A stretch of DNA of 64,000 bases from an uncultured Myxococcia bacterium (GTDB lineage: Bacteria; Myxococcota_A; UBA9042; PHBI01), in assembly GCA_942493285.1 (NCBI GenBank), contig OW818691.1, forward strand, positions 950,875 to 1,014,874, given 5' to 3'. Made by a program: the position numbers and the translations under genes. Each line of letters starts with the position of its first letter. Position 1 is the first letter of the stretch. Shown piece after piece: positions 970-64,000 of this stretch. Under the pieces are notes generated by a model. The model was not told the origin of the DNA. It did no database searches and saw only the letters and a list, made by a program, of their open reading frames with translations.

Positions 970-3546
970 TCACTGCGAGAAGTTCATCGTGTTGCCGGTC
1001 TCGAGCTCGACGATGACGATGCCGACGCGGTCGGTCGCGACGAACAGGCGGTTCTCGGCGAGCGGCGAGAGGCACCACGGGCGGTCGATGAGCGTGCCGT
1101 CGTTCGTACCCAGGATCGGACCGCGCAGCTGGTTGGTCGGGTTGGTGTTGATGGGGCCCGCGTAGACGTTCTGGCCGCCCGAGCCGCTGCCCGTCTCGGG
1201 GTCGGGTCTCTGGTACATCCAGCCCCAGGTGTCGCCGCTGGCGGGGTCGAACAGCGCCGCGTCCGAGGGGGTCTGGGCCTCGTTGCCGCCGGCGACCCAG
1301 AGCTGGAGGTAGGGCAGGTAGAAGAAGGACCAGACGCCCGGGCCCGGGCCGGTACCCGCCGCGTCGCCAAAGATGCGGGTGCGGACACCGGTCGCGACGT
1401 TGATCTTGTAGATCGCGCCGGTCAGGAACGAGGTCCCGTAGATGACCCCGTCCTTGTAGCCCCAGCCCGAGTCGAGCGCTGGCATGTCGAAGCCCGAGCC
1501 CGGGCCGGCGGCGCCGTTGGCCGTGACCCAGCTGCAGGAAGAGCGGTCGTTGGCGACGCGGATGACGCCGTTGCCGCGGACCGTGAAGAGCATGTCGCCG
1601 TTCTCGGTGAGCTCGAACTGGTGATTGAAGATGTCGGGACGTAAGGCCATGTTGCCGGTTGGGCTGCCGCAGTGAGCCGCGCTGAACGCGGTGTCGCGGT
1701 CATTCCACCAGAGGGTGCGGTTGCCGGTGACGAGGTCGACCCGGTAGACCGAGCGCCCGAAGAGAGGGCTCGTGTCGGCGGCCGTGCTGCCGGGCACCGA
1801 GTCCTCGAAGACGTAGAGGAAGCCATCGGGGCCGAGCGCCAGGTCGAGGATGGTGTCGAAGGCGGTGCCCGTCCCCTTCTGATAGACGCCGGTGTTCGGG
1901 TCCAGGTACTCGCCCGAGATGAGCGTGCGGTTGGCGGTCGCGGGGTCCATGGCGAAGATGAAGCCGCGGCGCGAGTCACCGTTGTTCGCCCAGTTCACGC
2001 CGAAGTAGACGAGGTCGGCCGAGAAGTCGGTGGCGCAGCCCTTGATCTCGCCACTCGGGGCGTCAGCGGCGTTGACCCCCGTGCCGAGGTGGAGGTTGGC
2101 GAGCTCCATGGCGGTCGGCGCCGCACACAGGAGCGAGCCCGCCTGCGAGCCGTGCGGGCAGCGGCAGTCGACGGGGAACGAGGTCTTCTGGTTGGCCTGA
2201 AACCAGATCTGCTCGGGGCCGACAGGGCCGGCGCACTGCATGTTGGGGTAGGGCGAGTTGTCGGGGTCGGCGAGCGAGGAGATGCCACCGTCGCCAAAGC
2301 ACTGGGCGCTGCCATTGCTGTTGTAACAGAGGCCGAGACAGGTCTGGTCGGGTGAGGGTGCGCACTCGTTGATGTCGGCGCAGAAGTGGTAGTCGAGGAC
2401 GAAGCCCGCGTTGCAGGCGCACTCGAAGCTGCCCTCGGTGTTGGTGCAGATCTGCGAGCAGTCGTCGGCGTTGGTCGCACACTCGTCGACGTCGGCGCAG
2501 GTCCGGCCATCGCCGGTGAAGCCGGGAGCGCAGGTGCATGAGAAGCTACCCGGCGTGTTCTGGCAGCGCGCGTTGGGCGAGCAGTCGGCGACACCGTTGC
2601 CACACTCGTCGGTGTCCACACACGTGCCGCTCGCGTTCGTCTCGTAGCCGGCATTGCACGGGGTCGGGGCGCAGAAGAAGCCGTCGCCCTGGAAGCCGGT
2701 CTTGCAGCGGCAGAGGGCGCTGCCCTGCAGGTCGAGGCAGGTCGCGTCGGCGTGGCAGCTGATGGCCCCGGTCGTGCACTCGTTGATGTTGGCGCACGAG
2801 CCGTTTGCCCCGCGCGTGTAGCCGCTCGGGCAGGCGCACGTCCGGCCGTCGCCGATGAGCGGGGCTCTGCACTGGCAGGTATAGAGCTCGGCGCCATAGC
2901 GGTTGAAGCACTGGGCGTCATCGGAGCAGGTGTCGACGCCGGTGTAACACTCGTCGATGTCGCCACAGCGCCCGGCGTTGGTGCCAGAGAGCTTGAACTC
3001 GAGGCCGGGGCCGCAGTCGATGGCCGTGCAGGCGAAGCCATCGCCCTCGTAGCCGGCTTTGCAGAGGCATGTGTCGTTGCCAAAGCCGTTGCTGCAGGTC
3101 GCGTTGGGATCACACGTCACGGCCCCCGTCGCGCATTGGTCGATGTCCTTGCATGCGGTGCCCTCCAAGGTGGTGCCTGGCGGGCAGACACACGCGTTGT
3201 CGACGAGGACGAGGCCGCCCGAGTCGCACACACACTCGAAGCCACCCTGGTTGTTGAGGCAGCGGGCGAGCGGGTCGCAGTCGTCGAGGGCCTGATAGCA
3301 CTCGTCGATGTCCTGGCACTCGGAGGAGCCTGGCCTGGTCGTGTAGCCGGGTGGGCAGCCGTCGCAGGTCTGGGTCGCGGCGTTGGGTAGCGTGCCCGCA
3401 GGGCAGTAGCAGCCGGGGCCGTCAGGGCCGTTGGCGACGAAGATGGCGCCCGAGCCAGCGGGACATTCGGTGTCTTCTGCGGCTTCTTGTTCGCAGGCGG
3501 TCGCGAGCAAGGCGAGTCCTAGACTCAGGAGGAGGTGACGGCGCAT
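970..3546 (-). CDS. Lipoprotein with about 7 calcium-binding EGF-like repeats and a C-terminal probable beta-propeller
   Basis: Lipobox LLATAC. Repeats such as DIDEC...C..NARC.NTPGSFSCTCAPGFTGDGRTC. The C-terminal ~370 aa is beta-rich with propeller-like blades (LDLALGPDGFLYVF, IYKINVATGVRT). Confidence 0.85.
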   Translation of the reverse strand: MRRHLLLSLGLALLATACEQEAAEDTECPAGSGAIFVANGPDGPGCYCPAGTLPNAATQTCDGCPPGYTTRPGSSECQDIDECYQALDDCDPLARCLNNQGGFECVCDSGGLVLVDNACVCPPGTTLEGTACKDIDQCATGAVTCDPNATCSNGFGNDTCLCKAGYEGDGFACTAIDCGPGLEFKLSGTNAGRCGDIDECYTGVDTCSDDAQCFNRYGAELYTCQCRAPLIGDGRTCACPSGYTRGANGSCANINECTTGAISCHADATCLDLQGSALCRCKTGFQGDGFFCAPTPCNAGYETNASGTCVDTDECGNGVADCSPNARCQNTPGSFSCTCAPGFTGDGRTCADVDECATNADDCSQICTNTEGSFECACNAGFVLDYHFCADINECAPSPDQTCLGLCYNSNGSAQCFGDGGISSLADPDNSPYPNMQCAGPVGPEQIWFQANQKTSFPVDCRCPHGSQAGSLLCAAPTAMELANLHLGTGVNAADAPSGEIKGCATDFSADLVYFGVNWANNGDSRRGFIFAMDPATANRTLISGEYLDPNTGVYQKGTGTAFDTILDLALGPDGFLYVFEDSVPGSTAADTSPLFGRSVYRVDLVTGNRTLWWNDRDTAFSAAHCGSPTGNMALRPDIFNHQFELTENGDMLFTVRGNGVIRVANDRSSCSWVTANGAAGPGSGFDMPALDSGWGYKDGVIYGTSFLTGAIYKINVATGVRTRIFGDAAGTGPGPGVWSFFYLPYLQLWVAGGNEAQTPSDAALFDPASGDTWGWMYQRPDPETGSGSGGQNVYAGPINTNPTNQLRGPILGTNDGTLIDRPWCLSPLAENRLFVATDRVGIVIVELETGNTMNFSQ

Positions 3547-3806
3547 GGGTGACCCCTTGGGGTGGATGGTTGGAACGCGCCGGAGGACCGATGCCCCGGC
3601 GTGTCGCGACCGTAGACGGTTCGAGGCGCTTGCCTTGGGCAGGTGTCAGATGGGAGCAAGACGGACCAGCGCGCAGGCGCGTAAGCTCTCGAGGGGCGTC
3701 AGAACGGCGACAGATGGCGCTTCGGCGCGGACTGTCCGCTTTGGATCGGCCAACGGGAGGTGTAGTCGACGGATATCTCGAAAGTCGAGATATCTGGCGG
3801 CTGGCT

Positions 3807-4715
3807 TCAGGTCTCGTCGACGACCCGATCGCCTTTGTGAAGGAAGAGCTCGAAGTTGCCGGTGCCGTCTGCGCGCACCAGATCGGGGCGGATACGATGG
3901 CTTCGGAGCTTGCGCCGCAGGCGTGCGACGGCGGTGTCCCACCTGCGGCGGAGGGCGATGGCGTCGGTCTCGTCGTTCCAGATCTCGCTGCCGATGACGT
4001 CCCAGCCGACCGGCAGTCGCATGACGGCGAGCTCGGACAGGATGCGCGCCGAGATCCCGTCGATGGCCACGCTCGGCTCGTTGGTTCGGTGGACGTGGAC
4101 GGTGTCGTAGCGGACGATTAGCTGGAGCGGGTCGCCCACGCCAGCGCCGTGGGTCATCGCCTGACCGGCGTGTCCCAAGGGGGTCGCGACGGCTCGGAAG
4201 GTCTGGCCGCCCACTTCGAAGGTGTCGCCCTCGACGATCGGAACGGCTTCGGATGCAGCTCCCGGCGGTCCGAGTCGGATCAACCAGCCGAGACCGTCGC
4301 TCCAGAGGGTAGCGTCGCTGTCGTTTGCGAGGCCCGGGATCAGCTCGGGGCGTGGGCGGACGCGCAGCGACGAGACGCCTGACAACACCTGGCGCGCGAG
4401 CCCTTCGCCCTCGAGGGCCAGCACCGAGTCGGGCAGGATGACCTCGAGGACGGTGATGGCGAAGTAGGGGGTGAGCTGGATTTCCAGCTCGGGGGTCAGC
4501 TCGACCTCGGTGAGGGTCCTGTGGCCGACCGCGAAGCGGCCTCGCAGTGCGTAGAGCTTCAACACGCTTCCGCGCAGGCTCACCATGGCGTGAGCTTCCG
4601 AGATGGCAGGGTCGGAGATCGACAGGCCGGCCGACCAGGTCCGGCCGATCAGCTCGCCGGGGCCGAGCTCGGTGGTTCTGCCGTCTGGGAGTTGAAATCG
4701 TACAAAGGCGCGCAC
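3807..4715 (-). CDS. Transcriptional regulator with N-terminal FHA domain and C-terminal winged helix
   Basis: FHA motifs IGR...S..H (GRTWSAGLSISDPAISEAHA). C-terminal OmpR-like wHTH (ARILSELA...EIW...WDTAVARLRRKL...LVRADGTGNFEL). Start moved from 5096 to GTG 4715, which lies 7 nt after TGaTAGCTT. Confidence 0.8.
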   Translation of the reverse strand: MRAFVRFQLPDGRTTELGPGELIGRTWSAGLSISDPAISEAHAMVSLRGSVLKLYALRGRFAVGHRTLTEVELTPELEIQLTPYFAITVLEVILPDSVLALEGEGLARQVLSGVSSLRVRPRPELIPGLANDSDATLWSDGLGWLIRLGPPGAASEAVPIVEGDTFEVGGQTFRAVATPLGHAGQAMTHGAGVGDPLQLIVRYDTVHVHRTNEPSVAIDGISARILSELAVMRLPVGWDVIGSEIWNDETDAIALRRRWDTAVARLRRKLRSHRIRPDLVRADGTGNFELFLHKGDRVVDET

Positions 4716-4831
4716 GGGGTCGAAGCTATCACGCGATCGGGCGAGCTCGATAGCGCGTGCGAGGCCATGCCGCGACGAGGCTACTGCGGGGCGCTTGCCG
4801 TGCGCGGCCGTCCACGCGTACCGTTCGGGGC

Positions 4832-7800
4832 GTGCACAGGGACGAAGAACTTGGCGGCAGCGTCGTCGGCGCCGAGAGCGGCGTTCCGCTTGGCCTGAGT
4901 TCCGTCGCGCCTGACCGCGCACCGATATCGCAGGCGTCGCCGCCGAGGGCGTCGTCAGCGTCCGAGCGCGGGCGCTACGAGCGTCGGGGAGAGCTCGGTC
5001 GGGGCGGGATGGGACGGGTCGTGCTCGTCCACGACGCGGTCCTTGGCCGCGATGTTGCGATGAAGGAGATCGTCCCTGGTCAGGAGGGCGCCGCATTCGC
5101 CGCGCGACTCGAGCGTGAGGCCGCCATCACTGCGCGACTGGAGCACCCGAACATCGTGCCGGTCTACGACGCCGGCTACGATGCGCAGCGCGGACCTTAC
5201 TATACGATGAGAGTCGTTCGTGGTCGCTCACTCGCGGACGTCGTGCGTGAGAGCCCGGAGCGCGCCTCGCGTCTGCGCCTCTTGAGCCATGTCCTGGCGG
5301 CGAGCCAGGCGGTCGCGTGGGCCCACCGGCATGGGATCGTGCATCGCGACCTGAAGCCGTCGAACGTCATGGTAGGCGAGTTCGGCGAGACGCAGGTCGT
5401 AGACTGGGGGCTGGCTCGCGCCATCGTCGGCAGCGACTTCCCTATCGTTCGAGCTGAGCAGAATGGGCAGGCCGGGCGGACTGGGCACGCTGGGCCCGCC
5501 GCTTCCATGGAGGCCATCGGCGCGGAGCCTGAGTCCGAGGACCCGAACTTCACGGCCTGGGGTTCGGTCGTCGGCACGCCGCACTACATGAGCCCCGAGC
5601 AGGCGATGGGCGAGCCCGTCGATGCCCGCTCGGATGTCTGGGCACTGGGCTTCATCATCTATGAGGTCGTCACGGGGCGGCCCGTTCGCGACCCGAGCAG
5701 CGCGAGCGACGTCATCGCCCAAGCCCGCTCGGGACTGCCGATGTTGGCCCTCGACGAGCTCCCCGTCGAGCTCGCGGCCATCGTGCGGCGCGCGACCGAG
5801 ACGCGACGCGAGAGGCGCTATCCCGAGGCCAAGGAGCTCGCCGACGACCTCGCGAACTGGCTCGAAGGCCGTCGCGTCACAGCCCACAGCTATACGCCCT
5901 GGGAGCTCCTGCGCCGCGTGGTGAGCGCCTGGCGGGTACCACTCCTGATCGTGGGGCTCGCCCTCGTCGCGCTCGCCGTGGCCATCGGGCTCGGCTTTCG
6001 CAGCACCACCCTCGAGCGCGTGCGCGCCGAGGCGGCCGAGGCTCGGGCGACCTCGGCCCTTGGCCTGGCCGAAGCCGAGCTCGGGCGTGCGCTCGCTGAG
6101 TCGTCACGCGCGCTCGCCTCCGACGGACGTAGGCCCGAGGCGGAGATCATGGCCGCCGTCGCGCTTGGCCACCTCGAGACCCCAGAGGCCCGCGGGGTCC
6201 TCGCCTCGCTCGCGACCGGCCCACGACCGAGGCTCGTGGCGACTCACGTCCTGCCCGTGTGTGAGGGCATCACCTTGTCGAGCGACGGCCTCGAGCTTTT
6301 GTGTCGCGGCGAGGACGCGTTGTCGCGGCATACGCTCGGCGTGGCAGGACCCCGCTGGCGACGCGCAGGCGCCTCATCGTTCGTAGCCTGGTTCGAGCGC
6401 GAGGGCAGGGTACTGGTCAACGGCACCCAGAGCGGCTCGGAGGTCCTCGACGCGGCCACAGGGCAGTCGCTCGGGAAGAGTGAGGCGTGCTGCAATCGTC
6501 TCCAATCGACGCTCGAGGGCGACGCCGTCTTTGGGTTCGGACAACAGACCCTCGAGGTCGTTCGCGCCGCCGCCGGGCCGTCGGAGCTCATCGCCTCGAC
6601 ATGCAAAGAGGTGAGTGTTTTCGGTGCTTTCGAGCGCATCGCGGGACACGAGCGCTGGCTGCAGGTGTGCTTTGACGGGCGCTTCCGGGCGCAGGACTCG
6701 CGACACGGCCAGCGAACCGGCGAGCTCCTCGCGCCGGCAGGCCACGACCTGCACTTCGGGGTCGCGCTCGTGCCGGGTGCCGACGGCGCCCTCATCGGCT
6801 CCAACTCGGGTGAGCTCGCCTACCTCGAGCTCGCGACCGGCGCGCTCCGGTGGAGGCGACAGGTCGGCGTGGGCGTCGTCGGTCCCATCACCGTCTCGCC
6901 CGACGGCAGCATCGCGGCGTTTCGCGACGGGGCGCGCGGCATCGCGATCTGCGACGTCGTGAATGGCCACATGTATGGCCGCCTCCCGGCCACCGAGGAC
7001 CTCGGCTTGCGGTTTTTAGCCGGCCATCCCAGTCGGCTCGCGACCTGGGGCCGCGGGCGCCTGACGACCTGGGATCTCGAAGGTGGGTTGCCTGCGACGA
7101 TCCCGCTCGAGGGTGGCGCGGCCGCGCTCGACGTGAGCCGCGATGGGCGGCTCCTGGCGGTCGGCACCAGCGAGCACCTGGAGGTGTTCGCGCTCTCGAG
7201 CGGCGCTCGTGTCGTCGCGCGCCGCGAGGGAGTCGTCGTGAAGAGCGTCCTCTTCTCGCCCGACGGGGCTCGGGTCGCCGCCGGCCTGGGTCACGTCGAG
7301 CGCCGCGTCGCGGTGGTACTCGTCGATGGCAGCGAGCCCTACGAGCTCGGCCCTGTCGGCTTCACGCGCCGGCTTGCTTCCGCGAGCGGTGGCCGCGTCC
7401 TGCGTGTCGGGGACTTCGGCCGCTACCAGCTCCTCGACTGGGACGGCGAGCCTATCGCCACGGAGCCGACGCGTCACGCCGACCACGACCTCGCGGTCAG
7501 CGCCGACGGCCGACATGCGGTGCTCTTGCGCGACGAAGCGCGACGGGCGGTCATCGCCGACCTGGGGGTCGCGCCGCTCTGGCGGGAGCTCGCAGCCGAG
7601 TCGTCCTGGGCCGCGGCCGCTCCCGACTCGTATGGGCTGCGTTGGGCGTTCGTCAGCGGGTCCACCGTCGAGGTGGTCGACGATTACGGGGAGCTCGTCG
7701 CCGTGTTCGCCGGCGATAGGGATGCGCAGCTCACCGATGTCGCCTGGTCACCCGACGACCGATGGGTCGCCAGTGGCACCCGACGCGGCGTCGTCTACGT

Positions 7801-57357: not shown

Positions 57358-57751
57358 CCGGCAGTACGAGCTGGACGAGCATCAACCCCGAGCAGCGGGG
57401 CGACTTGAGCGTCAAGATAGCCATCGTGGCTGGCGAACCTGAGCGAGACTACAATCCACCCGGCGGATGTGCTTGTGCCTTACGAAGACCCAAACGAGGA
57501 ACCGCTCTTTGAGGCCGACGGCCGAGCGGAGGCGCGTACTTGGGCGGACGCCCTTGCGGAGGTGAGGTCGATGGGACGCGCAGAGGCCCGATTGACCGAT
57601 GCGCACCGGGGCTTCACCCGCAGTACGCAGAGTCGTTGAAGGGTGCGGTCGGAGAGTCGAGCGGACGCGGAGCAGGAGCGTCGACGAGACCATTCCTTTG
57701 AGCGGAGTTTAGACGGTGGATTGAGGGACTGTGCCTGAGAACACCGGGACC

Positions 57752-57802
57752 TTGACACTGGCGTATCGACGTGACACTTCATCAGGTGTTGAAGTGATGA
57801 AG
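57752..57802 (+). promoter_or_regulatory. Promoter/operator of the ArsR/SmtB operon
   Basis: TTGACA at 57752-57757; two overlapping inverted repeats, CACTTCA-N8-TGAAGTG (57775-57796) and CTTCATCA-N10-TGATGAAG (57777-57802), covering the -10 region and start codon. Confidence 0.6.
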
Positions 57803-58174
57803 ATTACACCCCACCAGCATCCACCGCGCCCGGCCGAGCCGCCTGACGTCGCCCTCCTCGAGCGCACGGCCGAGCTCCTGCGGGCACTCGCCGATCCGCT
57901 CAGGCTGAAGCTCGTATTGACGCTCGCACGCGGCGAGGCATGCGTGAGCGAGCTCCTCGACTCGCAGGACGCGGGCCTGTCGACCGTGTCGCAGCGCTTG
58001 AAGCTCCTGCGTCAGGTCGGCCTCGTGAGCCGCCGGCGCGAAGGCAAACACATCTACTACCAGCTGGCCGACACACACGTCCGCGAGCTCGTCGACAACG
58101 CGCTCGCTCACGCCGCGCACTCCCATTCCCCGTCCGTCCCAAGTCCCTCAATTCCCCTGGAGAGCTCACCATGA
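57797..58174 (+). CDS. ArsR/SmtB-family metal-sensing repressor with alpha5 site
   Basis: LRALADPLRLKL...CVSEL...STVSQRLKLLRQVGLVSRRREGKHIYY; alpha5 motif D-x-H-x10-H-x2-H (DTHVRELVDNALAHAAH). Start moved to ATG 57797. Confidence 0.92.
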   Translation: MKITPHQHPPRPAEPPDVALLERTAELLRALADPLRLKLVLTLARGEACVSELLDSQDAGLSTVSQRLKLLRQVGLVSRRREGKHIYYQLADTHVRELVDNALAHAAHSHSPSVPSPSIPLESSP

Positions 58175-59969: not shown

Positions 59970-61313
59970 TCAGAAACGCGCCATGCAGGCTTCATCGTAG
60001 CGCCCCATCAACCAGGCCGAGAGGCCTTCGACGTCGCTGCGGGTCGCGGCGACCTGGGCGAGACGATAGAGGTGGGGTGCGGCAAAACGACCTAGCTGTT
60101 GATAGGCGGCGTCGAGCGCCTCAGGAGCGGCTGACGCTTTGCTCCAGGCCGAAGCAAAGCGCTCCATGAGGGCGGTCTCATCGGCGTCGGAGAAGATCTC
60201 GACGCGACCGACGAGCGTCCGGACGAGCTCGTCGGGGGGCGGGTCGATGGCAATAGGAAGCAACGAGTCGGTCCAGCGCGAGGGGACGATGTAGAGCACA
60301 CGCGCGCCCGTGCTCTGGAAGTAGCTGTGGCTCCAGGTGTCGACCATCGAGAGGGCCTCGTCGGGTCGGAGGCCCGAGTCGGTAAGGGCCGAGATCAGGT
60401 CGGCGCGGGCCTCGTCGAGGTGGTTGTTGCCCGACCGCGGGTCGGAGCCAGACGAGCCGGACGCGCCAGACTTGGAGGTCTCGAAGGTCGTCGTCGAATG
60501 CGGGGCGATGGCGCCCAGGCGTTGCCAGTGGCCGCTGCCGTCGGGGTCGAGGCGCAGGTGGAATGCAGCCGCGATGGTGTCGGCGGAGTCGTTGTGGAAG
60601 GTGGCCTGCGTGCCTTGTGTCGTGATGCGCATGGGCGGCGTGAAGCGACCGAGGCCCCGGTAGAAGATGAAACGTTCGTGTTCATCGCCGGCGCGCAGCG
60701 GGGTCGCGGCGACCAGGCGGGAAGGCGCCCAGATGTCGTCCGTCGGGACCCACGGGAAGGTGTCGAGTGGGATGGTCGGGTCGAGCTGGACCTCCCAGCT
60801 CATGGCACCGTCGCGGATCCCGTCCATGGCGCCGACGGCCGGGGCGAAGGCCGAGGCGCGTGGGAAGTGTTGGCTGATGATGCCGTCAGGAAAGTCGACG
60901 GTCACACGCACGGTCTTCGGGGTGTCCGAATAGAAGAAGAGGACAGGTGTCTCGAGCTTCTGGGTGGCCGCTTCAGGCAGGTTCTCGAGGTCCTTGTCGC
61001 CGATGGTGAGGCAGACCGGCCCGCTGTCGCAGCGACCGTGCACGAACGGTGGCAGGCCCTCTTCTTCGATGTGGAGGCCGGGCAGGGGCTCGCCGGTCTT
61101 GTCCATCACGGAGGTGAAGGTGCCCCATTCATGGACGACGAACGCAGGTGCGACCGGGGCAACTTCGTGTGGTGCCGGCGTTTCAGGCGTGTTGGGCACT
61201 TCGGGCGTGGCGAGCACTTCGGGCGTGGCGAGGGGAGCCGAGGTCCCCGAGCGCGGCTCGGCAGAGCCGGCGCAGGCGAGGAAGGGCAGGGCGAGCAGGA
61301 CGGCGATGCGCAT
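59970..61313 (-). CDS. Conserved-looking hypothetical lipoprotein (VHEWGTFTS motif)
   Basis: Lipobox FLAC; VHEWGTFTSV, KLETPVLFFY, ERFIFYRGLG, LVRTLVGRVEI. Start moved to ATG 61313. Confidence 0.75.
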   Translation of the reverse strand: MRIAVLLALPFLACAGSAEPRSGTSAPLATPEVLATPEVPNTPETPAPHEVAPVAPAFVVHEWGTFTSVMDKTGEPLPGLHIEEEGLPPFVHGRCDSGPVCLTIGDKDLENLPEAATQKLETPVLFFYSDTPKTVRVTVDFPDGIISQHFPRASAFAPAVGAMDGIRDGAMSWEVQLDPTIPLDTFPWVPTDDIWAPSRLVAATPLRAGDEHERFIFYRGLGRFTPPMRITTQGTQATFHNDSADTIAAAFHLRLDPDGSGHWQRLGAIAPHSTTTFETSKSGASGSSGSDPRSGNNHLDEARADLISALTDSGLRPDEALSMVDTWSHSYFQSTGARVLYIVPSRWTDSLLPIAIDPPPDELVRTLVGRVEIFSDADETALMERFASAWSKASAAPEALDAAYQQLGRFAAPHLYRLAQVAATRSDVEGLSAWLMGRYDEACMARF

Positions 61314-61644
61314 GGGGACCTCGGGTGGTGGTGAGTCCGAGGTTGTCCTGAGCAAGGCGAGTGCCAGCGTCGCGACACGCAGAACGGCCACATTGGGCTG
61401 GGCAGCGCGCCAGGATGTAAAGTCAATTTACTGCCAGCCGTAGCCCTGGTTGCGGATGTAAGACCGGTTGCCGTCCCGAGTTGGGGGCGAGGCTTGTTTG
61501 CCCTCAATGGTGACTCGGCGCTGATTCTGGGGTTGGCCGGGTTCGATGTGGAGGCACGGCTCGCCATGCACTCGAATGACGACCCGGCAACGGCAGGTTC
61601 GAGGCAGGCGCACGGCTCGCATTGCCCAGGGGGTGACGACGAGC

Positions 61645-62298
61645 TCAGTGCTTGCAGCAGTCCGGCGCGACTTCCAGGAAGGGGCGCGGCGTGCACTCCA
61701 TGACATGACCACGCGCATCGAGGGCGACCTCGCAACACGCGTGGATCATGGCTTCGAGGCGCCGCTTGCCGCGTAACACCCGGGACTTGAGCGCGGGCAA
61801 CGATAGGCCGAGCAGCTCGGCCGCCTCTTTGCCGGTCCGGCCCTCGAGCTCGGTGAGGGTCAGGGCGTCGCGGCTGTCTTTGGGCAACGCCGCCACGAAG
61901 GCGACCAATGCCGTCGAGAGCAGGCGAGTAGGTTCGTCCATCGCCTCCGAAAGTGTCTCGGCCGCGTCGACGGCCGGCGCTACCTCATCGGGCCGTGTGC
62001 CTTCGCGTGCAGCCTCCTCGGCTTCGAGCCCGGCCAGCGGGTGCCGCTGACGCATCCGCAGGTGGTCGAAGACGGCCGAGCGAGCGACGCCGAAGAGCCA
62101 TGAGCCGAGCCGCTCCGTGCCGCGCACCTGATGGATGCCGCGCAGCATTCGGAGCCACACTTCCTGCATGACGTCGTCGATGTCGCTCGGCCCGACCCGG
62201 CGCGCAACCCAGGGTCGAATCCGCCCGTCGAGCTCCGACCAGTCGAGTCGGTCGAGCCCTTCTCCGGTCCCGCGACCCTCGGTGTGCGCGCCCTCCAT
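61645..62298 (-). CDS. ECF sigma factor, SigZ-like, with Cys-rich C-terminal tail
   Basis: Region 2 DIDDVMQEVW...SWLFGVARSAVFDHLR; region 4 LP...ELEG...KEAAELLGLSLPALKSRVLRG; tail ACCEVALDARGHVMEC...DCCKH. ATG 62298 overlaps the arsM stop (TGATG). Confidence 0.87.
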   Translation of the reverse strand: MEGAHTEGRGTGEGLDRLDWSELDGRIRPWVARRVGPSDIDDVMQEVWLRMLRGIHQVRGTERLGSWLFGVARSAVFDHLRMRQRHPLAGLEAEEAAREGTRPDEVAPAVDAAETLSEAMDEPTRLLSTALVAFVAALPKDSRDALTLTELEGRTGKEAAELLGLSLPALKSRVLRGKRRLEAMIHACCEVALDARGHVMECTPRPFLEVAPDCCKH

Positions 62299-63128
62299 CA
62301 GCGGGCTCCTGGCTTCTTCGCCTCGATGGTGGCCGAGGCGACGAAGTTCTCGGCGCCCGAGCCGGGCAACCACCCGGCGATGAAGGCCCGGCTCTCGGGC
62401 TTTGTGCGCACCGCGATGGCCTCGAAGCCCGCCTCGGCCAGCTGGCGCTTGACGTCGCTCACCAGCGCCGCCCCGGACACGCAGCCCGTGAGCGCGTCGA
62501 CCTGAGCCTGCAGCGCGGCCGGGATCTCGGCCAACGCCACCACGTCGGAGATCGCGAGCCGACCGCCCGGCTTGAGCACCCGGAAGGCGTCGCGGAAGAC
62601 CTGCGCTTTGTCGGGCGACAGGTTGATGACGCAGTTCGAGAGGATGGCGTCGACGCTCTGGTCGGCGACCGGCAGGTGCTCGATCTCTCCCAGCCGGAAC
62701 TCGACGTTGGTCACCCCGGCACTCAGCGCGTTGGAGCGGGCGCGGGTCACCATGTCCGGCGTCATGTCGACGCCGATGACGCGGCCGCTCGGGCCGACGG
62801 CGCGGGCTGCCAGGAAGCAGTCGATGCCGGCGCCACTGCCGAGGTCGACGACCGTCTCACCCGCCCGCAGGCTGGCGATGGCGTGGGGGTTGCCGCAGCC
62901 GAGCCCGAGGTCCGCGCCTTCGGGGATAGCCTCGAGCTCGTCCGGGCTGTAGCCGAGCGACGTGCTCTGCGGGCCGCAGCAGCCGGTAGCCTGGTTGGTC
63001 GCCTGTGGGGTCGCCGCCGCACTGGAGGCAGGGGCGCAGCAGCCCGGTCCGGCCGCGCCTACGCGGGCGATCTTGCCGTACTGGTCGCGGACTGCGACGC
63101 GCACGGCGTCGGGGTTCAACTGGGACAT
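62298..63128 (-). CDS. arsM: Arsenite S-adenosylmethionine methyltransferase
   Basis: [41 protein letters not shown] cover the conserved ArsM cysteine positions; GAGGAG SD. Start moved to ATG 63128. Confidence 0.92.
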
Positions 63129-63266
63129 GGTCTTGCTCCTCGGGAGTGTGGCGACGTGGTGTCGCGTCATCCATGAAGACGGGCATCGCCCGGAAAGGAT
63201 GCGCACCGCGATGCGCAAATGTGTCCGTCACCCCATGCTCGGACACCGCCGCCCGAGGCCCGGACA

Positions 63267-64000
63267 TCAGCGGCCGACGACCTCGGGCACCGCGTAGTCG
63301 GTCGGCTGAATGGCCAGGAAGAGCGAGCCCTCGCTGGGGATGAGGCTCAGCGGGCCCGGCATGTTCGGGGTCGTCGAGGTCGCGCTCCGCCACCCCATGA
63401 TGAACCGGTCATTGGCCGAGACCCAGCCCACGTGTTCGAGGACCTGCCCCGCAAACACGACGCGGTGCGAATAACGCGAACCTACGGCCGACGTGAACCA
63501 CCACCCAGGCCCTACATCCGAGTTCTCGTCGCCCGTGAACAGCTCCCCGTCGACCATCGCGCCGGCTTGATAGCCGATGACCCCGGCATCGAACCGGTGG
63601 ACGATCTGTGCGCCGACCGGGTCGGGAGACCCGATGCCGCCGTGCATCGACACGAACGCATAGGGGCCTGAGAGGTTGGCGCGGCCGGCGGTGCGGTCAC
63701 GGACGAGGACGAGGATGCCATAGCGGATGGCGCCGTCGTCGCGTGTGAGGACGATGACGTCGCCGCGTGGACCGATGCCGCCGGTCCACCTGACAGGTGT
63801 TCTCTGGGCCGGGTCGGTGACGCCGTCGGCAATGAGCTCGAGGTTGATACGATGGCCGCCCTGGAAGCCGGTGAAACAGTCGCTGCCGTCGGCCACATAG
63901 CTGTGGCTGACACCGAGGTCTGGGCTCGTCGCGATGATGCCCGAACCTGTGAGGCAACCGCCGTCGAAGGTGATGGTGCCTTGCCAGGTCATGACCGGTG
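63267..64000 (-). CDS. Hypothetical beta-rich protein, 5-prime partial
   Basis: Frame is open to the window end with strong GC3 bias; no family recognised. Confidence 0.6.
   Translation of the reverse strand, partial: PVMTWQGTITFDGGCLTGSGIIATSPDLGVSHSYVADGSDCFTGFQGGHRINLELIADGVTDPAQRTPVRWTGGIGPRGDVIVLTRDDGAIRYGILVLVRDRTAGRANLSGPYAFVSMHGGIGSPDPVGAQIVHRFDAGVIGYQAGAMVDGELFTGDENSDVGPGWWFTSAVGSRYSHRVVFAGQVLEHVGWVSANDRFIMGWRSATSTTPNMPGPLSLIPSEGSLFLAIQPTDYAVPEVVGR

Follow-up and report, generated by a model that had tools for sequence, protein, structure and literature searches.

What controls arsenic methylation where the arsenite methyltransferase gene arsM runs directly into the gene for an extracytoplasmic function (ECF) sigma factor with a cysteine-rich tail, and where no arsenic-type ArsR is encoded at the operon? 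The question is raised by a 64,000-nucleotide stretch of DNA from an uncultured Myxococcia bacterium (GenBank assembly GCA_942493285.1, contig OW818691.1, positions 950,875 to 1,014,874), which is referred to below as the window, with positions counted from its first nucleotide. To our knowledge, all arsenic-responsive transcription factors described for ars genes are repressors of the ArsR/SmtB family; for arsenite oxidation there is a separate two-component control. We report that the locus is best explained overall as a self-contained, positively autoregulated promoter-arsM-sigma operon with arsenical gating on the sigma protein, an explanation whose chances of being right in full we judge to be evenly balanced. 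The evidence for the promoter and for the link between the two genes is considered before that for the signal. The elements of the operon in the window are as follows.

62298-63128, minus strand: arsM, 831 nt, encoding a 276-aa arsenite S-adenosylmethionine (SAM) methyltransferase (NF008823).

61645-62298, minus strand: SigZ-like ECF sigma factor gene, encoding 217 aa; one base is common to its start codon and the stop codon of arsM.

61648-61737, minus strand: Cys-rich C-terminal tail of the sigma factor, residues 188-217, CCEVALDARGHVMECTPRPFLEVAPDCCKH.

63194-63203, minus strand: -35-type box CGCATCCTTT; the family consensus is TGCGTCCTTT, and the two substitutions are both present in relatives.

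63176-63181, minus strand: -10-type box CGTCTT, 12 nt past the -35 box and 53 nt ahead of the arsM ATG.

63198-63217, minus strand: direct repeat TGCGCATC-GCGG-TGCGCATC, the second copy overlapping the -35 box.

63221-63246, minus strand: inverted repeat GTGTCCG-N12-CGGACAC followed by ATTT, placed after the stop codon (63267) of the upstream gene and ahead of the promoter.

The arsM product scores 335.7 bits against NCBIfam NF008823 (cut-off 263), with residues 6-275 aligned to positions 4-270 of the 272 in the profile. It has the SAM motif VVDLGSGAG, two vicinal cysteine pairs near the N-terminus (C30/31 and C50/51) and the motifs GLGCGNP (C78), SNCVINL (C166) and GCVSGA (C216), whose cysteines we equate with those that act in catalysis in characterised ArsM/AS3MT enzymes. 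The window ArsM ends in KKPGAR (62301-62330) and has no CC tail; related ArsM proteins mostly end in CCxP... or CCxPxCCx, with a CC within the last six residues in 34 of 77, and the type of ArsM tail co-varies with the type of sigma tail, for which shared ancestry alone may be the explanation. At the junction of the two genes, CGCTGATGGAG, the A of the TGA stop is also the A of the ATG start, i.e. the one-base overlap (TGATG) that a preliminary description of the locus had noted. Downstream of the sigma gene follows a gene for a 473-aa lipoprotein (59970-61391); since it has no counterpart at that place in related loci it is not counted as part of the module.

The sigma protein contains only the Pfam domains Sigma70_r2 (residues 31-85) and Sigma70_r4_2 (residues 130-181), and in a Foldseek search with its AlphaFold2 model (mean pLDDT 81) the top 25 matches were all ECF sigma factors (SigH, RpoE, SigW and CnrH among them), such that domains, model and fold matches agree in placing it with the ECF (group 4 sigma-70) factors. 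Its best NCBIfam family is SigZ (TIGR02959, E 1.4e-34), and because the 119.3 bits obtained lie under the equivalog cut-off of 168.65, as do the 120 bits against NF007215 (cut-off 212), the protein is SigZ-like rather than SigZ. Going by sequence, and with SigZ, a stated ECF238 member, as proxy through this best match, the protein is tentatively assigned to the SigZ-like, former ECF24 part of ECF238. It also fits the broader description of that group, which has a Cys-rich extension of approximately 20 aa and no anti-sigma partner (Casas-Pastor 2021; PMC7826278, PMC8999054, PMC6851896): the short extension is present, and the conserved neighbourhood contains no anti-sigma gene. The five cysteines noted in the preliminary description, C188 C189, C202 and C214 C215 (CC-x12-C-x11-CC), fall within the last 30 residues, where, according to the model, the last sigma-4 helix is immediately followed by a predicted beta-hairpin (residues 189-193 and 199-204). 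A Foldseek search for a solved relative of the tail returned ordinary ECF sigma factors only. The Cys-rich tail is kept in 26 homologues and at 77 loci; 74 of 77 relatives retain the first CC pair, the distal pair is nearly universal, and the minimum is three cysteines, a number to which three relatives are reduced.

To find related loci, one genome per species was scanned with an alignment of the 26 homologues, and 80 loci were returned, nearly all from Myxococcota (Polyangiaceae, Sandaracinaceae, Nannocystaceae, Kofleriaceae and Haliangiales) and one from a Binatia metagenome-assembled genome. Minicystis rosea, Nannocystis and Sorangium are examples of culturable relatives with the arsM-sigma pair. 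The gene arsM is present at 77 of these 80 sigma loci, almost always immediately upstream and on the same strand, and at one of the three loci without it there is no space for it upstream. The sigma start lies within the arsM stop (RTGA) at 52 of the 77 loci and the arrangement TGATG is found at three, including the window; in most others the gap is at most 21 nt. Conservation of the pair, of its start/stop overlap and of the promoter motif described below extends over at least 14 GTDB families, at an identity among the sigma proteins of only 40-55%. Moreover, in an even sample of 401 genomes from the phylum (sigma threshold E ≤ 1e-25) the sigma factor was detected in 32 genomes from 28 genera, and 29 of the 34 matches adjoin arsM, including all 24 with E ≤ 1e-37. 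The methyltransferase gene itself is much commoner (166 of the 401 genomes), and the sigma gene therefore accompanies only a subset of arsM genes.

In a maximum-likelihood tree of 85 ArsM proteins the sigma-linked and unlinked sequences are interleaved, at least three changes being forced by well-supported branches and nine by parsimony; the linkage is thus not one frozen event, and a single origin is ruled out. No conserved same-strand gene follows the sigma gene in the 72 related loci that were searched for an anti-sigma factor, and no protein with an HxxxCxxC motif was found there; in the window, too, no anti-sigma gene follows, as the preliminary description had said. Clustering of the neighbouring genes at related loci brought out ars genes only and no anti-sigma factor.

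The region upstream of arsM in the window reads TGCGCATC-GCGG-TGCGCATC-CTTTCCGGGCGATGCC-CGTCTTCA. A k-mer enrichment run on the 180 nt upstream of arsM genes returned GCGTCCTT and CGTCTTCA, and the family motif, in register, is TGCGTCCTTT-N12-CGTC(T/C)T, which equals TGCGTC-N16-CGTC and has typical ECF geometry. The relatives conserve (T/C)GC(G/A)TCCTTT-N12-CGTC(T/C)T, corresponding to positions 63203-63194 and 63181-63176 of the window, and the end of the motif usually lies 18-27 nt before the arsM ATG. The preliminary description had proposed TGCGCATC-N16-CGTC with a duplicated TGCGCATC as the promoter; both are present and the location is right, and the duplication turned out to be peculiar to the window genome and absent as a conserved feature from the relatives.

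Allowing two substitutions at most, the motif was found in 65 of 74 sigma-linked arsM loci (67 of 76 with two loci where it lies just beyond the scanned span), against a background of 0.003 per 180 nt. Linkage and motif are far beyond chance. As a control we used 20 close ArsM orthologues (55-69% identity) without a sigma match: the motif is present in none of 19 sigma-less loci vs 65 of 74 linked ones (Fisher p = 2.4e-13), and the twentieth orthologue turned out to have a frameshifted sigma gene and to have the motif as well. Where the sigma gene is divergent (locus L011) the motif remains with arsM, and where arsM is absent (locus L045) it precedes the sigma gene. In its exact 14-base form the motif occurs 15 times in 27 sigma-positive genomes (~200 Mb), 12 of these directly upstream of a linked arsM, and the reversed control gave 0. 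The window motif, CGCATCCTTT-N12-CGTCTT (63203-63176), is the sole strict match in the 9.29-Mb genome, and scans for a regulon with the strict motif, in the own genome and in the 27 sigma-positive genomes, returned essentially only the arsM promoter. No sigma-70-type promoter was found in 61200-63400. At the motif level, the sigma-containing operon is preceded by the CGTC-type -10 element and the spacer of about 16 nt expected of an autoregulated ECF operon. The preliminary description had put forward an autoregulated, ECF-type promoter-arsM-sigma unit and a survey of sigZ-arsM linkage and of the shared promoter motif; judged from the conserved pair (77 of 80 loci), the overlap and a motif that tracks the sigma gene (65 of 74 vs 0 of 19), such a unit appears strongly supported.

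A few matches outside this pattern were also seen. Two additional exact matches look like chance, one being inside a coding start and the other having no downstream gene. At locus L083, 568-1294 (genome G327, contig 368), an exact motif stands 45 nt before a DUF924 gene (PF06041), which is followed by a gene for an ArsR-family helix-turn-helix protein and a 206-aa open reading frame (ORF), and this unit may be an extra member of the regulon in that genome. The conserved coding sequence for LRPFVARRV, TGCGGCCCTTCGTCGCGCGCCGCGTC, inside sigma genes (L006 4065, L027 4059, L063 4023) mimics the motif with two mismatches, and loose motif scans were contaminated by false positives from it. The inverted repeat at 63221-63246 resembles a terminator and, as far as its sequence tells, may insulate the operon from the upstream gene; a simple terminator scan made no call there.

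On these grounds the SigZ-like factor very probably binds the promoter upstream of arsM, recognising CGCATCCTTT-N12-CGTCTT, and we consider it equally probable that it transcribes both arsM and, via the TGATG overlap, its own gene from there, which would constitute positive autoregulation. Within the window genome the arsM operon seems to be the one strict target of the factor, and control of its activity most likely resides in the sigma protein itself. With respect to the signal we lean towards an arsenical. The vicinal pair and the distal cysteines of the tail would provide the thiolates to which As(III), or possibly methylarsenite, binds, and binding would make the sigma factor competent for RNA polymerase or for the promoter, in the way that CorE and CorE2 are activated by Cu, Cd and Zn. 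Methylation of arsenic would in this manner be induced by arsenic itself, with no ArsR repressor at the arsM operon. That the tail cysteines read the arsenical directly and thereby activate the factor we put at slightly less than an even chance, because of the precedent of CorE/CorE2-type factors, by analogy, and the near-invariant vicinal pair. A vicinal cysteine pair plus a third cysteine forms the As(III) S3 site in ArsD and in the Acidithiobacillus and Corynebacterium types of ArsR. The near-invariant first CC, the distal pair and the three relatives with only three cysteines make such an S3 site a better fit than Zn(Cys)4.

Several observations weigh against this mechanism. In the window, the promoter departs from the consensus at two positions, and its leader of 53 nt is unusually long vs about 20 nt. 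The final 12 residues of the tail are poorly defined (low confidence) in the AlphaFold2 model, the middle cysteine is missing in approximately one third of the relatives, and the distal pair is plastic (CC, CxC, CxxC or longer spacings). Four tail thiolates would, from the sequence, suit a structural or regulatory zinc site as well as As(III). The comparison with CorE that was part of the preliminary description holds in that the factor is Cys-tailed and has no anti-sigma partner, and fails in two particulars: no cysteine occurs between residues 86 and 129, where the CxC linker motif stated as defining for CorE-like factors (PMC6851896, PMC8999054) would be found, and CC-x12-C-x11-CC is not the Cys spacing of CorE or CorE2. 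The factor is therefore not CorE-like in the strict sense. In addition, CorE-like factors are reported not to be fully autoregulated (PMC6851896), and the effect of metal bound to the C-terminal Cys cluster of OrbS is inhibition instead of activation (PMC9023288), so one cannot take for granted in which direction the window factor responds. Control by ArsR also has to be counted here: at ~10 of 70 related loci a divergent arsenic-type arsR (ELCVC or CVC) abuts the ECF promoter, and ArsR may therefore share control (dual control) in those relatives, and the arsenic-type ArsR of a second ars operon in the window genome could act in trans on arsM. A zinc or redox switch, or an external regulator, fits the sequence equally well.

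That second operon lies outside the window (C1:4919615-4925685, i.e. at 4.92 Mb) and is canonical, arsR-arsD-arsA-trx-ccdA-acr3-arsC, with an ArsR of 124 aa, an ArsD containing MCCSTGICGP, an ArsA of 598 aa, an Acr3 scoring 458 bits and a 289-aa protein whose first half reads as a low-molecular-weight phosphatase-type ArsC. When the sequences upstream of arsM and of arsR in this genome were compared for a shared ArsR operator, only a 9-mer was found in common, which is near chance. The ArsR encoded in the window itself (57731-58174, plus strand, 3.5 kb away) has, as read from its translation, D-x-H-x10-H-x2-H and a single cysteine replacing ELCVC, in agreement with the zinc-type alpha5 site attributed to it in the preliminary description. 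Among the sigma-less close arsM genes a co-directional arsR stands immediately upstream in 10 of 19, vs any arsR within 1.5 kb, and then nearly always divergent, in 14 of 70 sigma-linked ones (p = 0.008). From their gene order, the sigma-linked and the ArsR-linked arrangements look like alternative ways to control the same enzyme. The earlier phrase "without ArsR" accordingly has to be narrowed: it is correct for the window operon, at which no arsenic-type ArsR is encoded, and does not extend to the own genome, with its arsR operon at 4.92 Mb, or to those 14 relatives.

How, then, does sensing by the tail compare with other explanations of the same locus? We regard it as unlikely that the sigma factor drives the operon with a tail that holds structural zinc only, the arsenic signal coming through an ArsR, either in trans or from a divergent gene with occlusion of the promoter, or through an unlinked anti-sigma factor. 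Such an arrangement would account for the divergent arsR genes that abut the promoter, for the As-type ArsR at 4.92 Mb, for four conserved thiolates that match Zn(Cys)4 and for the brake that a positive loop requires; it is contradicted by the absence of any arsR within 1.5 kb at 80% of sigma-linked loci, by arsM and arsR upstream regions without a common operator, by the lack of a conserved partner gene across the 72 loci, by the three relatives with just three tail cysteines and by the absence of anti-sigma factors from the whole ECF238 group (PMC7826278). The cargo counts against the idea, in our opinion quite unlikely, that the tail is an in-cis zinc-thiolate or redox switch, like a built-in ZAS domain, for thiol stress or soft metals (Cd, Zn, Cu, Sb), with arsM as one cargo of several: cargo and neighbours are overwhelmingly arsenic-specific (arsM at 77 of 80 loci, acr3, arsH, arsC, ArsN2 and an ArsK-like transporter) and not Cd, Zn or Cu efflux genes. 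CorE nevertheless answers Cu, and CorE2 Cd and Zn, through Cys motifs that have been likened to ZAS domains (PMC6851896), the Cys-pair-rich peptides encoded with sigma paralogues resemble general thiophilic-metal binders, and the window has an SmtB-type regulator gene with that of a His-rich protein 3.5 kb away, all of which would suit such a switch.

It has also to be considered whether ArsM joins in the signalling, either through its product methylarsenite as the inducer (feed-forward) or as a protein made in fixed ratio that hands arsenic to the sigma tail or sequesters it (partner-switch). The strict gene order, sigma after arsM with a stop/start overlap in 55 of 77 loci, the co-variation of the ArsM CC tails with the sigma tails, and the genes for handling methylarsenite (MAs(III)) near family members (arsH, and an ArsP-type permease gene by the plasmid relatives) would all be in keeping with this. 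We nonetheless hold it to be improbable, with paralogues that share promoter and tail having first genes other than arsM, the sigma gene of L045 standing alone, a tail co-variation that may reflect mere shared ancestry and a window ArsM that has no such tail. Finally, that the adjacency is a frozen accident inherited from one ancestor, with no regulatory meaning, can hardly be upheld: with one Binatia exception all loci do come from one phylum, but order, overlap and promoter are all kept at only 40-55% sigma identity, the ArsM tree forces at least three changes between linked and unlinked genes, and the motif strictly tracks the sigma gene.

The surroundings of the module in related genomes provide some insight into what else may be under this type of control. 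Neighbours of the arsM-sigma pair include arsR (20 loci), a MIP channel gene (17), acr3 (16), arsC (10) and arsH (8). More distant sigma paralogues in the phylum (E 1e-26 to 1e-29) have the same motif and tail behind another first gene, and in one paralogue the sigma gene is alone, beside ArsN2 (146.9 bits, cut-off 125). At L106 the first gene behind the motif (5440), ahead of the sigma gene, encodes a major facilitator superfamily (MFS) transporter (4152-5369, minus strand); at L109 another MFS transporter gene (5511-6791) is located downstream of the sigma gene after that of an ArsO-like oxidoreductase. For both transporters the best family is ArsK, with matches (E 1e-42 to 1e-44) below the cut-off. 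In L108 (3211-3465) and L109 (3130-3471) ORFs of 84-113 aa rich in Cys-Cys pairs replace arsM between the motif and the SigZ-like gene, and an NCBIfam search gave no family for these peptides. Outside the phylum, a plasmid of Citrobacter amalonaticus (NZ_CP011133.1; L105, 5959-7903) encodes a SigZ-like factor (144.6 bits to TIGR02959, under the cut-off); behind it come an ArsP_1 permease and an ArsE-family thioredoxin-like protein. At least 100 plasmids of Citrobacter, Klebsiella and Enterobacter have this block, its sigma gene bearing no annotation beyond "sigma-70 family".

Tentatively, the SigZ-type Cys-tailed ECF factors could constitute a new class of one-component sensors of trivalent arsenicals that run "promoter, cargo, sigma" cassettes. 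The cargo would then be arsM in most Myxococcota and, elsewhere, perhaps an ArsK-like pump, a Cys-pair peptide, a TauD-like dioxygenase or the plasmid-borne ArsP/ArsE, which we offer with the same reserve.

The dioxygenase belongs to the TauD/TfdA family (PF02668, E 2.9e-29). It accompanies the arsM-sigma module at seven of the 80 loci, is fused in frame to the Cys tail in three, and is absent from the window's genome; neither family libraries nor the literature search gave an arsenic role for a TauD-type enzyme. The loci are listed here.

L002, 4001-5590: TauD-like dioxygenase.

L064, 4001-5623: TauD-like dioxygenase.

L077, 4001-5578: TauD-like dioxygenase.

L069, 4636-5613: TauD-like dioxygenase.

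L028, 1069-2037: TauD-like dioxygenase.

L043, 575-1237, minus strand: TauD-like dioxygenase, with its own copy of the promoter motif.

L001, 6077-7030: TauD-like dioxygenase.

A membrane protein of ~180 aa (start MNEIASILLAVYA..IDGIYLHLW.YRL), without a match in NCBIfam, is encoded downstream of the sigma gene in eight loci and, in L004, between arsM and the sigma gene. The positions are as follows.

L001, from 4576: ~180-aa membrane protein.

L038, from 4775: ~180-aa membrane protein.

L070, 4829-5374: ~180-aa membrane protein.

L004, about 3300-3858: ~180-aa membrane protein.

Cys-tailed ECF factors without an anti-sigma partner are already known; what is new here is such a factor with arsenic cargo, its own promoter and the "promoter, cargo, sigma" architecture. 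In our literature search no publication was found that connects arsenic with any ECF sigma factor. Neither arsenic nor a methyltransferase is mentioned in the main text of the ECF reclassification paper or in its preprint, and in a 2019 review of metal-responsive ECF factors "arsen" and "metalloid" do not occur. If the proposed mechanism is correct, it would represent a second and mechanistically different arsenic switch, with positive control by promoter recognition in a single polypeptide and a loop that amplifies itself. Such a factor would be the first arsenic regulator not belonging to the ArsR/SmtB repressors, and also the first metalloid-gated sigma factor; it would extend the CorE-type principle from metals to a metalloid and provide the SigZ/ECF24 part of ECF238, which is large and unstudied, with a function. 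Light would also be shed on the control of arsM in soil myxobacteria, a matter relevant to how arsenic is methylated and volatilised in soils, and in predatory myxobacteria such a switch might time the production of methylarsenite, a toxic compound, for use as a weapon. ECF factors generally show orthogonality to host promoters, and this compact module (a promoter of ~35 bp and a 217-aa factor) could serve as an arsenic biosensor part.

Among known systems, CorE and CorE2 of Myxococcus xanthus (former ECF44, now within or near ECF238) are the obvious comparison. They come from the same phylum and are ECF factors with a C-terminal Cys-rich extension and no anti-sigma partner, the Cys-rich domain of CorE2 likewise opens with a vicinal CC, and by analogy a thiophilic ion would be expected to activate the factor by binding to the cysteines, i.e. 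signalling by one protein. CorE2 is activated by Cd and Zn through this extension (PMC7826278, PMC8999054, PMC6851896). The window factor differs in having no CxC in the linker that joins sigma-2 to sigma-4 and in its Cys spacing, CC-x12-C-x11-CC as compared to C-x4-C-x2-C-x-C in CorE and CC-x3-C-x2-C-x-C in CorE2 (PMC9023288). Its cargo is arsM or other ars genes and not Cu, Cd or Zn efflux genes, its proposed ligand is a metalloid, and its gene is the second of an operon with its own promoter, whereas the expression of CorE-like factors is described as largely metal-independent (PMC6851896). SigZ of Bacillus subtilis (TIGR02959 / PRK09637; ECF238 subgroup 9) is the best curated family, with an alignment that extends into the Cys tail; it likewise lacks an anti-sigma factor, and no function has been assigned to it (PMC7826278). 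Two C-terminal cysteines are reported for SigZ vs five in the window factor, and no arsenic link for SigZ is reported in the literature searched.

OrbS of Burkholderia cenocepacia (ECF243) similarly uses a short C-terminal Cys cluster to read a cytoplasmic ion directly without an anti-sigma factor, and it provides experimental proof that a Cys tail regulates binding to core RNA polymerase (PMC9023288). It belongs to another ECF group, its Cys motif is C-x2-C-x3-C-x5-C, and Fe(II) inhibits it, whereas the mechanism proposed for the window factor requires activation. Finally, arsM operons controlled by ArsR/SmtB repressors have the same output gene, and close ArsM orthologues (about 55-71% identity) are found behind a co-directional arsR in the same phylum; the expected sensing chemistry, a three-thiolate As(III) site, would be the same as well. 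The difference is in the mode of control: there a sigma-70-type promoter is derepressed, whereas here a dedicated sigma factor with its own promoter would exert positive control.

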